Position numbers and translations under genes: made by a program
NCBI GenBank assembly: GCA_038065115.1
Contig: JBBTRS010000004.1
Coordinates: 1 to 50,679 of the forward strand
Length of the DNA: 50,679 nt
Direction of reading: 5' to 3'
Source of the DNA: Patescibacteria group bacterium
GTDB lineage: Bacteria; Patescibacteriota; Minisyncoccia; UBA6257; MFKM01
Notes under the pieces: generated by a model
What the model saw: the letters and a program-made list of their open reading frames with translations, nothing else
What the model was told of the DNA's origin: nothing
The model's database searches: none
In this document: piece by piece, positions 3,792 through 12,797 of the stretch
How positions within the stretch are numbered: the stretch's first letter is position 1
How the letters are laid out: every line of letters begins with the position of its first letter

Positions 3792-3828
3792 TTTAATTTA
3801 TAGTACAATATTATTGAATAATAATAAA

Positions 3829-4881
3829 ATGCCTGCTATCAACTTGCTCCCCGTATTAATTTTTATCATTAAAAAGGTATTTGGTAAAAATACAGCCAGT
3901 CGTTTACTTAAATTGCTAAGTAAAAATGAGAGTTTTTACCACGTTAATTCCATATATGATTTTGACGAGAAAAAATCTGTTAAACACTTAGTGCTGCTAC
4001 TTCCCGGAAAGGGTTGCGCTTGGGCTCAAAAAACCGGCGGTTGCACAATGTGCGGTTTTTCTCAAAAAATTAGACAAATCGGTAAAAATTTTACTGCCCA
4101 AGATCTTATTGCATTATACAAAATAACCGAAATTATGACCGAGGAGGATAAGCCATACACGTTAAGTATCTATAATGCTGGAAGTTTTATTAACAACGAA
4201 GAAATTCCCCTAGAGGTTCAAAAAATAATATGCCAGAGAATTAAACAGCATCCGACTATTAAGAAATTAGTGATTGAATCTCGGGCTGAATTTGTGACAG
4301 ATGATAAAATTAAGTTTTTGAAAAAAGGGCTAGGAGAAAAATTATTAATCATATCCATAGGACTAGAAACCCAGAATGACAAAATAAGAAATATTTATAT
4401 TAAAAAAGGGCTTTCTAAAGAAACCTACGAAAATGCGCTTAAAATAATCAAACAAAATGGGGCTAGGTCTTTAACATATATTTTTATAAAACCAATTTAT
4501 TTAAACGAACGAGAGGCTATAGATGAAGCGATTAATACGGCAAAATATGCTTTCGGGGCGGGAAGCAATGAAGTGGCATTTGAATCGGCTTTTATCCAAG
4601 AGGGGACAGTGATGGAGCAATTTTATCGGCGGGGAGAATTCAGACCTCCTTGGTTGTGGAGTATCATTGAGGTTATTAAAGGGACATGTAATTTAGGCGA
4701 TGTTCGTTTAGGCGGCTTTGAAGACGAACCCCCTCCAATTGCTATCCCCTCAAACTGTTCTAAGTGTTCAGAGAAAATTGAAGAAATGATGCAAAAGTAC
4801 CGAGAAATTAACGATATTAAGCTATTTGATAATCTTGATTGTGAATGCAAAAAAGAATGGCAGAAATCCGTTAAACTTTAA
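3829..4881 (+). CDS. Radical-SAM-like Fe-S enzyme with a non-canonical Cx8Cx2C motif (TIGR01210 / archaeosine-synthase-beta RaSEA-like family)
   Basis: Motif GKGCAWAQKTGGCTMCGF, a TIM-barrel-like GLETQND segment, PPWLWS, and C-terminal CSKCS...CEC cysteines. Start moved to the first ATG; the track start at 3814 is TTG. Family assignment is from memory of motifs, not a search. Confidence 0.6.
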   Translation: MPAINLLPVLIFIIKKVFGKNTASRLLKLLSKNESFYHVNSIYDFDEKKSVKHLVLLLPGKGCAWAQKTGGCTMCGFSQKIRQIGKNFTAQDLIALYKITEIMTEEDKPYTLSIYNAGSFINNEEIPLEVQKIICQRIKQHPTIKKLVIESRAEFVTDDKIKFLKKGLGEKLLIISIGLETQNDKIRNIYIKKGLSKETYENALKIIKQNGARSLTYIFIKPIYLNEREAIDEAINTAKYAFGAGSNEVAFESAFIQEGTVMEQFYRRGEFRPPWLWSIIEVIKGTCNLGDVRLGGFEDEPPPIAIPSNCSKCSEKIEEMMQKYREINDIKLFDNLDCECKKEWQKSVKL

Positions 4882-4893
4882 AAAGTTTGGCTG
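4870..4893. repeat. 24-bp exact direct repeat, copy 1 (gttaaactttaaaaagtttggctg)
   Basis: Identical to 7199..7222 in the same orientation. The core is an A/T palindrome (aaacttt aa aaagttt). It covers the stop codon of the 3829..4881 gene. Confidence 0.9.
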
Positions 4894-4898
4894 TTGAT

Positions 4899-5354
4899 TT
4901 ATAAATCTTTTTCCATTATTATCTCGTAATGGTTTTTATGTCTATATCTTTTTTTTATTTTAAAACCAAATTTTTCATAATACAGAATTAGCCCTTTTCC
5001 TTCATGCACTTCAATTTTTACTTTATTAAGCCCTAATTTTTTAGCAACATCAAATACTTTTTGAGTTAATAAACTCCCTATGCTTTGTTTTCTATATTCG
5101 GGCATAACTGCTAATTTATACAATCTAACCACATCGTTTTTAATTTCGTAACGCACCGCTCCCGCAATTTTTTCTTTTATTTTTGCCGTAAAAATTTTTG
5201 CCCCGTTTTGTAATTCCTTTATTATTTTTTCATTTGTATCGTTTGCTCTAGTAATCAAAAATCCTTGTTTATGCGCAACGGCATAAGCATTATTTGTTAA
5301 TTCAACTATTTTTTCTATATCTTTATCGTTAATATTTTGTATTATAATATTCAT
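4899..5354 (-). CDS. GNAT-family N-acetyltransferase
   Basis: 151 aa. Acetyl-CoA binding motif region: LAVMPEYRKQSIGSLLTQKVFDVAKKLG. Confidence 0.8.
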   Translation of the reverse strand: MNIIIQNINDKDIEKIVELTNNAYAVAHKQGFLITRANDTNEKIIKELQNGAKIFTAKIKEKIAGAVRYEIKNDVVRLYKLAVMPEYRKQSIGSLLTQKVFDVAKKLGLNKVKIEVHEGKGLILYYEKFGFKIKKRYRHKNHYEIIMEKDL

Positions 5355-5380
5355 TACATTAGAGTATAGAACAAATTAAA

Positions 5381-5406
5381 AGGAGACACCATTTATGGTG
5401 TCTCCT
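5381..5406 (-). terminator. Intrinsic terminator (11-bp stem AGGAGACACCA / TGGTGTCTCCT, 4-nt loop)
   Basis: Perfect hairpin followed on the minus strand by TTTAATTTG. It lies 19 nt downstream of the 37-aa mini-ORF stop. Confidence 0.75.
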
Positions 5407-5424
5407 CAGTAGCTTGTGATCAAC

Positions 5425-10560: not shown

Positions 10561-10623
10561 TTTGATAGAAAATCAAATTGAAAAGCCTAAAAAGACACCC
10601 TCCTTTTCCCTGAAATTAATTTT

Positions 10624-11550
10624 TTATAGATATTTTCGAGATAAGGCTTTTATCAAATCTTTTTCCTCCTCAATTTTTTTGAATCTTTTATAATTCCATT
10701 TGAATATCCCATCAGGTTTTAAATAAATGTTTTCCGCGCAGGCCAACATAGCCATTTGAGGCAAAATTTCTAAGTCTTCTTTTGACAATTTAATTTTTTG
10801 AGAATAGTTTTTTAAAAAAATCTCAAATCCGCTTTTTAAGAAAACGGTTCTTGGTGCGTGCTTCGTTTTCATCCCAAATCTAGAAAAATCGAAAGGAGTA
10901 AAATTAAACACAAAGGCAATCATTTGCCCAAGATCGTAAATAATCGGACCCCGCGAAATATCATCAAGGTCAATTAAAAAAAGTTTTTTTCTGCCCAAAA
11001 CATTGAAATAACTGATGTCGCCATGAACCAGGCCGGTTGTTAGGCCAAATATAGGCGGAAATAAATTACAAAAATTGATCATTTCTTTTCTAATTTTGAT
11101 ATCTATCTTTTTTCTAAAAAAAATTGCTTTTAGTCTTTGAATTTTTCCTTTGATATCTAATTCTGGAATTTTACTGTTTCCGATTTTTATTTTATGAAAT
11201 TCGCCGACAGCGCGACCAAGCTCCGAGAAGAAATATCGCGATGGACGATTTTCTTTTTGGTCAATAAATTCTGACAAAAACAAGAGGTTGTCTGATTGCA
11301 GAAAATATTTTTTGTTTGATTTCGTGCTAATAATGGCAGGGAGGTTGACTCCCTGCTTCTTAATTCTAGAAACAAATTCCAATCTGACAGTCAATTCTTT
11401 ATTATTCGGAATAACTTTAAGAACGTATTTATTTTTGTCGTTTTTAATTAAAAAAGCGCTTCGTTTTCCTCGCGTTTCAAGTTTTTTTAAAAAAACAGGG
11501 TTTTTAAGATCGTATTCTTTTTTAATTTTTTCAATTTTTGAGGAAATCAT
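10624..11550 (-). CDS. Phosphotransferase, APH / choline-kinase (PF01636-like) family
   Basis: Brenner/catalytic motif LVHGDISYFNVL and IDLDD. Start set at the first ATG (MISSKIEK); the track start is TTG. Confidence 0.75.
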   Translation of the reverse strand: MISSKIEKIKKEYDLKNPVFLKKLETRGKRSAFLIKNDKNKYVLKVIPNNKELTVRLEFVSRIKKQGVNLPAIISTKSNKKYFLQSDNLLFLSEFIDQKENRPSRYFFSELGRAVGEFHKIKIGNSKIPELDIKGKIQRLKAIFFRKKIDIKIRKEMINFCNLFPPIFGLTTGLVHGDISYFNVLGRKKLFLIDLDDISRGPIIYDLGQMIAFVFNFTPFDFSRFGMKTKHAPRTVFLKSGFEIFLKNYSQKIKLSKEDLEILPQMAMLACAENIYLKPDGIFKWNYKRFKKIEEEKDLIKALSRKYL

Positions 11551-11584
11551 CCCAAAATTACGCTTGTTGCAATATAAATATATT

Positions 11585-11819
11585 TTATTCAAAAAATATT
11601 TTTTCGCCGTTTTTAATAAAAATTGCTTGGGAGTTGCTTATCCTTTCTACGTGGATACCGTTTCTGTCTTCATTGGTTATTTTCTTTGTCGGAAGCAGCG
11701 GTTGTGACGATTACCGCCTTTTCGAAATTTCTTGAATCAACAATTTCTTTGAATTTATTATAAACATTTTGGCTGGAAAGACCGGTTGATGTAAGAAAAA
11801 TAATTCCCTTTTTATGCAT
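11585..11819 (-). pseudogene. Decayed fragment resembling the N-terminus of a peptidase S51 / class-I glutamine-amidotransferase-like protein
   Basis: A 49-codon ORF (MHKKGIIFLTSTGLSSQNVYNKFKEIVDSRNFEKAVIVTTAASDKENNQ-stop) continues in the +1 frame (NEDRNGIHVERISNSQAIFIKNGEKIFFE-stop). The LTSxG and KxVxxxxTAA pattern resembles PepE-like proteins. Truncated and frameshifted. Confidence 0.35.
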
Positions 11820-11850
11820 ATCTTTTTTAAAATCAAAAACAAGTATTTAA

Positions 11851-12735
11851 TTAAAATCGCGGGGTTTGTAAACCCGCTAAATTTTTTTCTGGGTCTGCTG
11901 AGCCGAGGGCCCAAATTATCGTATCAACAAAAAAGAAACTACGAATTACCATGTATTTATCTAAATTAAAATCTATTAGCTGCTTTAATTGTTCAATTAA
12001 TCTAGTGGTAAAATCATATTCAAAGTGTTCATCGCGTTGCTCGTCTACGTATGCTTTTGCGCATTCTTGATAATACATAATCCTTGCTAGATCATAAAAC
12101 GAATCTCCAAATTGGGCATATTCCCAATCTAAAATTCCGGTCAGCCGATATAAATCAGTTAAAAGATTGTGCATTATCAAATCGCCATGTAATAACACTG
12201 GCGATGTTTGGCCAAAAATTCTTTCCACCTTTCTTTCGTCAATGTTGCTAGATATTTCTAAAAATAATTTATGTGCTAATTGATTATCAAAAATTTTTTT
12301 TTCATTCAGCTTAAATTTATGAAATAATAAATCCTTATAATTTCTGAATTTTACATCAAACTGAGCTGACCAAAAATAATCTTTTTTTTGCTGATTAATT
12401 TTGTGAATAGCCTCTACTATGTCAGTTGCTATTCTTTTTTTATTTGTAATTTCAATGTTTTTCCAAGCATCGTCGATTGCTCGGCCTTTTATTTTTTGCT
12501 CTACTAACACACCGTAATTTTGAATTGTATAAAATGCCAAAAAGTTAGGCGCAACATCTAAAACGAGTGTCTTTAAAACCTCGCTTTCGTTTTTTAATAT
12601 GGTTAAATCTCGATTGATCTTTATAACGAAATTTTTGGAAAGCAAAACTTGCGACCTAGTTCCTTTTTCTGCTTTCTGAAAATCTTCTTTTATAGCCAAA
12701 CGATCTTTAACTTCTTTAAGAATGAGATCTGTCAT
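11851..12735 (-). CDS. Phosphotransferase, APH / choline-kinase (PF01636-like) family
   Basis: LLHGDLIMHNLL and ILDWEYAQFGD motifs. Start set at the ATG (MTDLILKE); the track start is TTG. Confidence 0.75.
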   Translation of the reverse strand: MTDLILKEVKDRLAIKEDFQKAEKGTRSQVLLSKNFVIKINRDLTILKNESEVLKTLVLDVAPNFLAFYTIQNYGVLVEQKIKGRAIDDAWKNIEITNKKRIATDIVEAIHKINQQKKDYFWSAQFDVKFRNYKDLLFHKFKLNEKKIFDNQLAHKLFLEISSNIDERKVERIFGQTSPVLLHGDLIMHNLLTDLYRLTGILDWEYAQFGDSFYDLARIMYYQECAKAYVDEQRDEHFEYDFTTRLIEQLKQLIDFNLDKYMVIRSFFFVDTIIWALGSADPEKNLAGLQTPRF

Positions 12736-12773
12736 TATCCCTAAATTATATATTTTAAAATACAAATAAAAAA

Positions 12774-12797
12774 GGAAGGGCTTGTTTCAGCCCTTCC
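12774..12797 (-). terminator. Intrinsic terminator (9-bp stem GGAAGGGCT / AGCCCTTCC)
   Basis: Followed by TTTTTTATTTG on the minus strand. Separates plsC from the AT-rich island. Confidence 0.7.

Follow-up and report, generated by a model that had tools for sequence, protein, structure and literature searches.

A predicted ranthipeptide-like peptide family within a cassette hotspot of a Patescibacteria genome

Freyrasin, the product of one of the known systems closest to the peptide family considered here, carries six bridges between Cys and the Cβ of Asp, and SCIFF peptides have been linked to quorum sensing, not to killing (PMC8326336). The maturase QhpD installs thioethers from Cys sulfur to methylene carbons (Cβ or Cγ) of Asp or Glu (PMC10114670), and the WprP2/WprB2 system provides a precedent for an S9 protease next to a radical SAM maturase (PMC12957482). 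Bacteria of the candidate phyla radiation (CPR, or Patescibacteria) are credited in most reports with scant natural-product capacity or none, and the Patescibacteria metagenome-assembled genomes (MAGs) of one survey contained no biosynthetic gene clusters (PMC11613949). Here we describe an accessory island (3814-12797) in a 50,679-nt stretch of Patescibacteria DNA (contig JBBTRS010000004.1 of assembly GCA_038065115.1, forward strand; hereafter the window), which encodes a radical SAM maturase, a 37-aa peptide and an acetyltransferase, together called the trio. The contig comes from Hainich groundwater, well H52 (0.1/0.2 μm filter fractions), and is present in several assemblies. Judged by its sequences, the trio appears to be a new ranthipeptide-like family of peptides made by ribosomes and modified after translation (RiPPs) within a cassette hotspot; no description of the family was found in the literature. 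It thus offers a concrete, testable RiPP family in a lineage where few would be expected. The island as a whole, flanked by a PlsC-type gene and a 7TM kinase, is likely a hypervariable Patescibacteria accessory locus that grew step by step as small cassettes were inserted, with the RiPP-type trio as its core.

The trio (4894-7147) consists of the following features.

4899-5354, minus strand: GNAT1, an acetyltransferase of about 150 aa (Pfam Acetyltransf_1).
5380-5407, minus strand: intrinsic terminator 3' of the precursor gene, a 12-bp stem followed by a T run and the strongest within 2-14.2 kb.
5425-5538, minus strand: gene for the predicted 37-aa precursor peptide MKHVKLLRSAQGLPKTVKSKRSKAVKYSTCMCCDQQD, with a basic leader and a C-terminal CMCCxxxD core.
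5576-7021, minus strand: maturase of 481 aa with RiPP recognition element (RRE), radical SAM and SPASM domains, identified from motifs, hidden Markov models and a structural model.

The radical SAM motif of the maturase, C113-N-M-K-C117-G-Y-C120 (CNMKCGYC), was invariant across 13 clade members. A SPASM motif, CADCWAKYICGGGC, begins at residue 406 (CX2CX5CX3C) and is accompanied by PF13186 and TIGR04085 matches; the seven SPASM cysteines (C351, C369, C406, C409, C415, C419 and C438) are invariant in the clade. Translation probably starts at the ATG at 7006, which is preceded by GGAGGTG. Among NCBIfam models, QhpD scored highest (259.6 bits; cutoff 453), followed by SCIFF (TIGR03974, 246.7 bits; cutoff 425), nif11 (242 bits) and PapB (NF047865, 241.4 bits; cutoff 340). 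The maturase fell below every NCBIfam cutoff, including those of these four models. The best-scoring models all describe thioether-forming peptide or protein maturases, and the PqqE and MftC models scored far below them. A phmmer search of the PDB returned CteB (5WGG) as the best match, over the full length (E=1e-54).

An AlphaFold model of the maturase (pLDDT 81, pTM 0.84) was compared with known structures using Foldseek. The predicted structure aligned with CteB at TM 0.81/0.88 over 452 columns, including the CteB N-terminal domain, and with anSME, which is without the RRE domain, at TM 0.61 over about 372 columns. Residues 7-78 are modelled as strands followed by three helices (pLDDT 87-96), the fold of an RRE; this assignment is by fold only, as Pfam PqqD gave no match on the maturase. 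The preliminary description of this DNA, made from the sequence without database searches, had considered that the enzyme might fall in a non-peptide clade such as the sulfatase maturases. That model scored 102 bits (cutoff 349), compared to 241-260 bits for the thioether maturases. With radical SAM, SPASM and RRE domains and an adjacent precursor gene, the maturase belongs with the RRE-dependent peptide maturases and is CteB-like. Its clade comprised 14 protein clusters at 44-64% identity, and the next step, at about 32%, was to SCIFF enzymes of Bacillota. Only one of 185,579 species-representative genomes, a Ca. Nealsonbacteria MAG, contained a clade member; a metagenome scan yielded two more loci.

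The 37-aa gene has a Shine-Dalgarno (SD) sequence, AGGAGGTGA-N6-ATG, followed by 37 codons, a TAA stop and the strongest terminator of the region (read 5407-5380). An open reading frame (ORF) of this kind lies directly 3' of the maturase gene in 11/11 clade loci with DNA (the window, L008, L009-11, L012, L013, L093, L094 and L179), and eight distinct peptides of 37-38 aa are encoded. The peptide gene starts 6-40 nt past the maturase stop in all loci, the archaeal one included. M1, K2, G12, C-M-C and the terminal Asp are invariant in the eight peptides, which share the C-terminal pattern CMC[C/G]xxxD. The third Cys stands at position -5, four residues ahead of the terminal Asp (CX3D), in seven of the eight, and is replaced by Gly in L012. 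Core positions -4 to -2 vary among the peptides. In 2.1 Mb of control loci, a loosened form of the motif matched twice by chance, both times without CMC.

The pattern of nucleotide change was that of a coding gene. Differences between peptide genes clustered at third codon positions (e.g. 8/2/15), and the codons for the invariant Cys, Asp, Pro and Leu residues differed synonymously among loci. Stops were TAA or TGA with their position kept, the SD AAAGGAGGTGAT was conserved, and a hairpin followed the gene in every bacterial orthologous locus, with a different sequence each time. The peptide had no NCBIfam (E<=10) or Pfam match, and protein databases contained only the exact 37-aa sequence, called once, and no homologues. 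The NCBI annotation of the MAG omits the ORF, MEK7624161 and MEK7624162 running consecutively, and the recorded gene calls for L001/L002 and L009-L012 are likewise without the precursor gene. It is therefore easily overlooked by surveys built on called genes.

One related contig (L093) carries at 130-3307 a clade maturase and a CMCC peptide, MKNVHVAPNVWGKAEKVKDSGAKKVSKPPLCMCCGWFD, with a GTG start. The RpoH and RpoB domains that follow indicate that this contig is archaeal. Maturase and peptide are present there, and a GNAT is absent downstream. This looks like cross-domain spread of the family, and suggests exchange among ultra-small episymbionts.

The position of the peptide gene bears on the nature of the maturase substrate. 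If the substrate were a protein encoded elsewhere, as for QhpD and QhpC or for anSMEs and sulfatases, the 37-aa ORF would be an unrelated small basic protein. QhpD is indeed the top NCBIfam match, and the peptide is unusually basic for a RiPP leader. However, the 259.6 bits lie far under the cutoff of 453, there are no Qhp subunits or sulfatase nearby, the peptide gene closely follows the maturase gene in every locus including the archaeal one, and the RRE domain implies a leader-bearing peptide substrate. We consider a substrate encoded elsewhere highly improbable.

A GNAT of 150-176 aa follows the peptide gene in L008, L009-11, L012, L013, L094 and L179, and precedes the maturase gene in JGI 3300075153. 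GNAT1 co-diverges with the maturase: identity to the window protein was 54% for the GNAT and 64% for the maturase in L008, and 43% and 45% in L009. The nearest structural relatives of GNAT1, at a weak level, were the N-α-acetyltransferases RimI, Naa30 and Naa50. In the pathway that we infer from these genes, their conservation and the predicted fold, the basic leader of the peptide would be bound by the N-terminal RRE of the maturase. The radical SAM and SPASM domains would then cross-link the CMC[C/G]xxxD core, most likely through one or more thioethers from Cys to an acceptor carbon. The best candidate bond would join Cys(-5) to the Cβ of the terminal Asp, the CX3D arrangement of PapB/freyrasin and QhpD. 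As a working guess, GNAT1 would then N-acetylate the product, either in maturation or for protection of the producer. Because CX3D matches the freyrasin and QhpD thioethers, a ranthipeptide-like thioether is considered the most likely outcome, with a roughly even chance when set against other radical SAM/SPASM chemistries.

The conserved core also raises a different use for the product. Following the logic of PQQ and mycofactocin, the product of the trio could be a small cofactor for redox chemistry or metal binding, or a modified peptide that stays in the cell, and not one that is secreted. Metal binding is common among CxC motifs. Systems that have diverged by 45% all keep C-M-C and the terminal Asp, while antimicrobial cores usually vary, and the trio comes without exporter, immunity gene or dedicated protease. 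However, the family is very rare (the single species genome in 185,579) and carried on cassettes, neither of them typical of a cofactor; no enzyme that could depend on one is conserved alongside; the PqqE and MftC models lie far below the thioether maturase models; and the core does vary, at positions -4 to -2. On balance a cofactor role is unlikely, and a ranthipeptide-like RiPP is preferred.

The trio lies in a larger low-GC block whose remaining features, with those of its flanks, are as follows.

2205-3791, minus strand: sensor histidine kinase (Pfam HisKA_7TM, HisKA and HATPase_c), downstream border of the cassette region.
3814-4881, plus strand: RaSEA-like radical SAM protein with Cx8Cx2C (TIGR01210, 229.7 bits; cutoff 212.15).
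4819-4893, no strand: repeat D2 copy 1 (75 nt, 77% identical to 7148-7222), comprising a short hairpin and the genuine 3' end of the RaSEA-like gene.
7148-7222, no strand: repeat D2 copy 2, a relic of the RaSEA-like 3' end (KIFDSLSSDCKKGWRKLVKL, then a stop; found by tblastn) overlapping the GNAT2 3' end.
7200-7865, minus strand: GNAT2, 221 aa, 42% identical to the N-terminal domain of protein P0265.
7849-8024, no strand: 176-nt direct repeat copy 1, which takes in spacer, a terminator hairpin (7900-7877) and the opening 17 nt of GNAT2; 98% identical to 10408-10583.
8103-10145, plus strand: S9A prolyl oligopeptidase (POP; Pfam Peptidase_S9_N and Peptidase_S9), with GGSNGG at residue 530.
10168-10198, no strand: bidirectional terminator hairpin common to POP and the 21-aa gene, identified from sequence and from compensatory stem changes in L173 and L174.
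10213-10278, minus strand: gene for the 21-aa acidic peptide MIDPVEGTTMDNNGNFPMNGD, convergent with POP and conserved in L173 and L174.
10408-10583, no strand: 176-nt direct repeat copy 2, reading MKIKIR and a stop on the minus strand, a duplicated GNAT2 start (repeat comparison).
10624-11592, minus strand: APH-fold kinase 1, weakly CotS- or homoserine-kinase-like (PF01636, E=6e-10).
11851-12765, minus strand: APH-fold kinase 2 (PF01636, E=3e-11).
12772-12799, minus strand: terminator of the response regulator-plsC operon, an 11-bp stem followed by a T run.
12898-13539, minus strand: PlsC-type acyltransferase (Pfam), upstream border of the cassette region.
13550-13990, minus strand: receiver-only response regulator (PF00072, residues 7-124).

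GC content was 33.3% in 3814-12797 and 41.3% in the remainder of the window. The seven island genes had a mean GC of 0.324 and a mean third-position GC (GC3) of 0.275, compared to 0.414 and 0.423 for 38 backbone ORFs (Mann-Whitney p ~1e-6 for both). The AT-rich island of the preliminary description was thus borne out (0.333 vs 0.413), and its GC and codon statistics are clearly distinguishable from those of the rest. The block ends sharply on the right, at the plsC terminator (12772-12799), where GC3 changes from 0.27 in the neighbouring kinase to 0.46 in PlsC. Trio GC was 0.33-0.37 whatever the host; the trio therefore looks foreign only in this 41% GC genome, which points to lower-GC relatives as its source.

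The flanking sensor kinase and orphan receiver had been correctly recognised in the earlier reading, and all enzymes that it named were found. A proposed S51-peptidase remnant was not upheld: the 49-aa ORF at 11670-11819 had no match in Pfam, NCBIfam or PDB, and we rejected it as unsupported. The statement that the island encodes no housekeeping functions needs qualification, POP being 60-66% identical to proteins in many Patescibacteria lineages. A defence-island reading was also rejected, PADLOC having returned just generic radical SAM (viperin) and weak GNAT matches.

Two sets of repeats divide the island. The trio is bracketed by the D2 repeat (4819-4893 and 7148-7222). Copy 2 reads KIFDSLSSDCKKGWRKLVKL and a stop, where copy 1 reads KLFDNLDCECKKEWQKSVKL and a stop (tblastn, 60% over 20 aa, in frame, with the same stop position). 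D2 copies at the 3' ends of both the RaSEA-like gene and GNAT2 suggest that an older convergent pair of these genes was split by the trio. POP and the 21-aa gene form a second cassette (8025-10407), bracketed by the 176-nt repeat (7849-8024 and 10408-10583). Both copies of this repeat contain the terminator hairpin and ATGAAAATTAAGATAAG, the start of GNAT2. The duplicated start suggests that POP and the 21-aa gene are a recent insertion just inside the GNAT2 5' end, into an APH-spacer-GNAT2 arrangement. Logan contigs from other samples (L003, L006 and L007) break off at the margin of the 176-nt repeat, 13 nt ahead of the GNAT2 start; such breaks are the expected effect of a genuine repeat.

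From these duplications we infer an order of events. The oldest layer would be the RaSEA-like gene convergent with GNAT2, followed by the two APH kinases. The RiPP trio would have been inserted at the RaSEA/GNAT2 junction, and the POP and 21-aa cassette would have followed later, just inside the GNAT2 5' end, with lower-GC relatives as the probable donors of the cassettes. A shared cassette promoter motif, AAAAATTTGACA, had three matches in the window against 3.2 expected, and was not used as evidence.

Relatives of the RaSEA-like protein numbered 1651 in the representative library, several with an N-terminal extension of about 200-235 aa. In P0265, the N-terminal domain and GNAT2 share 42% identity over 208 aa (E=2e-47), and the C-terminal part is RaSEA-like. 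GNAT2-like and TIGR01210 'RaSEA' domains form one protein of about 530 aa in several other genomes. Sequence comparison thus presents the RaSEA-like enzyme as the predicted functional partner of GNAT2, not of the RiPP maturase. ArcS/ArcTGT was not seen in the island, to which the search was confined, and the function of the RaSEA-like protein is probably not archaeosine synthesis. The fusion points to a bacterial role for a family now annotated with that function.

The second mini-ORF belongs with POP. The 21-aa gene MIDPVEGTTMDNNGNFPMNGD has an SD (AAGGAGGTG) as well as a promoter-like site, and its hairpin serves POP too. Counterparts occur in the same place in the two closest POP loci, L173 (POP 85-86% identical) and L174 (POP 89%), with the sequence ...PPEGTTPDDDG[ND]YPMNGD. 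In both, the ORF shows synonymous third-position changes, an invariant SD and TAG/TGA stops at the same position, and the terminator stem of the gene pair has compensatory changes. A search of 2.2 Mb of fetched loci gave no other occurrence of the motif. L175, L177 and L178 (POP 65-69% identical) do not carry the ORF; L176 has a different acidic ORF at that position, at the contig end. Both mini-ORFs that had been proposed before therefore hold as real genes, given their conservation beside orthologous enzymes, SD sites, synonymous substitution patterns and terminators.

Against the PDB, the Myxococcus prolyl endopeptidase 2BKL was the best POP match (461 bits), with the macrocyclases PCY1, GmPOPB and OphP at 277-302 bits. 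By sequence POP looks like an ordinary hydrolytic prolyl endopeptidase. Its use as a macrocyclase of the 21-aa peptide was rejected and kept only as speculation, as the enzyme is nearest to hydrolytic enzymes and the ORF is missing in L175, L177 and L178. A role as leader peptidase of the 37-aa peptide was likewise rejected: the window peptide is without Pro near the core, and the peptides with Pro at the core (HP|LCMCC) come from loci without POP.

In two of six other POP loci, L176 and L178, a different radical SAM/SPASM gene and a Cys-rich mini-ORF lie within 3 kb of POP. These radical SAM/SPASM genes (L176:4834-6332 and L178:3951-5430) are mutually unrelated, and each is followed by an SD-led Cys/Asp-rich mini-ORF. 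The one in L176 encodes 52 aa ending in CTTCYDCVSCICDCVTAPDDGDGNG and is called, with no family match; the one in L178 encodes 40 aa ending in CSSDCGTECNEVTDCPGSMVDCNDDD and is uncalled. No NCBIfam model matched either. A loose association of POP with RiPPs is possible.

These loci bear on whether the whole 9 kb is a single RiPP cluster, in which both radical SAM enzymes, both GNATs, both kinases and POP act on the mini-peptides as tailoring or processing enzymes, with the flanking two-component system as regulator. Every component lies inside one low-GC block, WprP2/WprB2 sets a precedent for an S9 protease beside a radical SAM maturase (PMC12957482), POP does occur near radical SAM/SPASM and mini-ORF pairs in L176 and L178, and a 7TM kinase recurs nearby. 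However, the genes that stay together from locus to locus are only those for the maturase, the 37-aa peptide and GNAT1. Trio neighbourhoods differ among L008, L009, L012, L013 and L179, and the APH kinases, RaSEA-like gene and GNAT2 had no homologue in any related locus. GNAT2 is fused to a RaSEA-like domain elsewhere, POP has a repeat-bracketed cassette and a conserved peptide of its own, and the distribution of core-adjacent Pro separates POP from the 37-aa peptides. A single pathway is quite unlikely. Of the RiPP layout first proposed, a RiPP-type trio in a Patescibacteria MAG stands, and the inclusion of all 9 kb in one pathway does not.

Modular growth of the locus is also seen in other genomes. 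L179 and L012 are close relatives (histidine kinase 82%, PlsC 78% and GNAT 77% identical). In L012, the PlsC, HAD and histidine kinase genes are contiguous with nothing between them. In L179 (893-14901; JGI 3300035701, Ga0373625_0000689), about 14 kb with six cassettes lies between PlsC and the HAD and HisKA_7TM kinase genes. The array contains six radical SAM genes, three GNATs and three SD-led mini-ORFs, namely that of the clade trio and two more basic ones. An element of 100-250 nt, present seven times, marks the cassette boundaries; identity to the reference copy is 80-92%. The final one is the authentic promoter of HAD with its 13 opening codons (MELVIFDLDNTLI); in each of the remaining six, a TAA, a hairpin and a strong promoter come straight after codon 13. 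The radical SAM genes between copies are only about 25% identical to each other. L013 shows a smaller version of the same repeat pattern.

The order in the window matches that in L179: PlsC, cassettes and 7TM kinase, with duplicated gene ends bracketing the cassettes. Downstream of the trio, L009, L012, L013 and L179 each encode a homologue of the 7TM kinase, and in L176 one adjoins another radical SAM-peptide pair. A PlsC-type gene borders the L179 array and adjoins the trio in L012, where a 39% identical receiver follows the kinase. Simple shared ancestry of the histidine kinase/PlsC synteny was rejected: the window proteins are just 28-33% identical to those of the other loci, which points to an ancient hotspot or a functional link. 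No integrase was found among the called genes of the window island or of the 18.7 kb of L179 read, and the boundary repeats duplicate the ends of target genes and are not attC-like hairpins.

A functional link could take the form of signalling. In a number of Patescibacteria, and perhaps in DPANN-like archaea, an integron-like array immediately upstream of the 7TM kinase might collect and exchange radical SAM, mini-peptide and GNAT modules. The modified peptides would then serve as signals sensed by the kinase, between episymbionts or between episymbiont and host. We regard this as doubtful but worth stating; if true, the window island would be a small instance with two nested cassettes and L179 one with six. 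The cassette arrays and their recurrent association with a 7TM kinase, as read from these loci, may be the most novel aspect of the system. Two nested cassettes in the window and six in L179 stand beside both a PlsC-type gene and a 7TM kinase, and repeat-delimited cassettes suggest how reduced genomes keep a small, swappable accessory repertoire.

Several points weigh against a ranthipeptide-like trio in a cassette hotspot. The maturase lies under every curated cutoff, and its reaction type is extrapolated from enzymes 29-32% identical; cyclophane, ether or other chemistry is possible. Gly in place of the third Cys in L012 indicates that CX3D is not the only essential link. The leader of the window's 37-aa peptide has no recognisable cleavage motif, and the trio includes no protease or exporter. 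Low GC could in part stem from relaxed selection on accessory genes as well as from transfer, and the insertion history is read from repeats, with no recombinase seen. The co-occurrence and conservation of the trio and the duplicated gene ends nevertheless make stepwise assembly around a RiPP-type core the likely account.

Further observations concern the surroundings of the island. Three additional genes, at 30742-31095, 39638-40747 and 22347-23231, have low GC (0.31, 0.32 and 0.36; GC3 0.25-0.35) and may be further small accessory insertions. A sister strain contig (ENA, 54,544 nt), at least 90% identical, contains the same island genes in fragments: a 262-aa maturase piece and kinase pieces of 134-204 aa (cluster members P0122, P0127, P0129-P0132, P0134 and P0136). 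This reflects either a frameshift-prone assembly or pseudogenisation in the related strain. A tRNA-Glu(TTC) gene (2096-2168, minus strand) lies immediately downstream of the histidine kinase and overlaps a 225-aa ORF (1498-2175) whose 5' end is probably spurious. This tRNA was the sole Rfam find and is separated from the island by the kinase; the idea of an island linked to a structured RNA or tRNA was dropped.

Among known systems, QhpD provides the top NCBIfam match of the maturase, and its Cys-S to Asp/Glu thioethers (PMC10114670) are the chemistry proposed here. QhpC, in contrast, is a subunit of an enzyme, and its gene lies with those for QhpA and QhpB; no Qhp genes occur in the island or related loci. 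WprP2/WprB2 has a parallel in the S9-family peptidases close to radical SAM-peptide pairs in the window, L176 and L178. The POP macrocyclases GmPOPB, PCY1 and OphP show a superficial likeness, as the 21-aa peptide can be divided into MIDP, VEGTTMDNNGNFP and MNGD in the manner of their leader-P/core-P/follower substrates. The window POP, however, is nearest to hydrolytic enzymes (461 vs 277-302 bits) and occurs in Patescibacteria irrespective of RiPP genes. The protein encoded at 3814-4881 resembles archaeosine synthase beta RaSEA in passing the TIGR01210 cutoff, but its host is bacterial and its partner is a GNAT, adjacent here and fused elsewhere, not ArcS.

The cassette locus resembles integron arrays and tandem islands in its stacked, small, promoter-bearing cassettes, its repeated boundary element and, in L179, the distal restoration of the target gene. 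It differs in that no integrase or attC-like site was identified in the stretches read and in that the boundary repeats are 75-250-nt copies of target-gene ends, which homology-driven (Campbell-type) insertion would explain no less well than site-specific recombination.

The closest system remains that of the SCIFF peptides and ranthipeptides (CteB-CteA, thermocellin; PapB-PapA, freyrasin). The maturase differs from SCIFF maturases and PapB in being 29-32% identical, and it scores 247 and 241 bits where the cutoffs are 425 and 340. The precursor is unrelated, with 37-38 aa, three Cys instead of six and a strongly basic leader, and without an NCBIfam match (E<=10) it is not of the SCIFF precursor family. 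Here the core stands at the extreme C-terminus, the precursor gene follows the maturase gene, a GNAT is a conserved partner, and the hosts are CPR bacteria and one archaeon, not Bacillota. Both share the combination of RRE, radical SAM domain and seven-Cys SPASM domain, with CteB the best match in sequence and fold. Both also encode a short Cys-containing precursor next to the maturase, and the Cys-X3-Asp motif that occurs six times in freyrasin is found once here.

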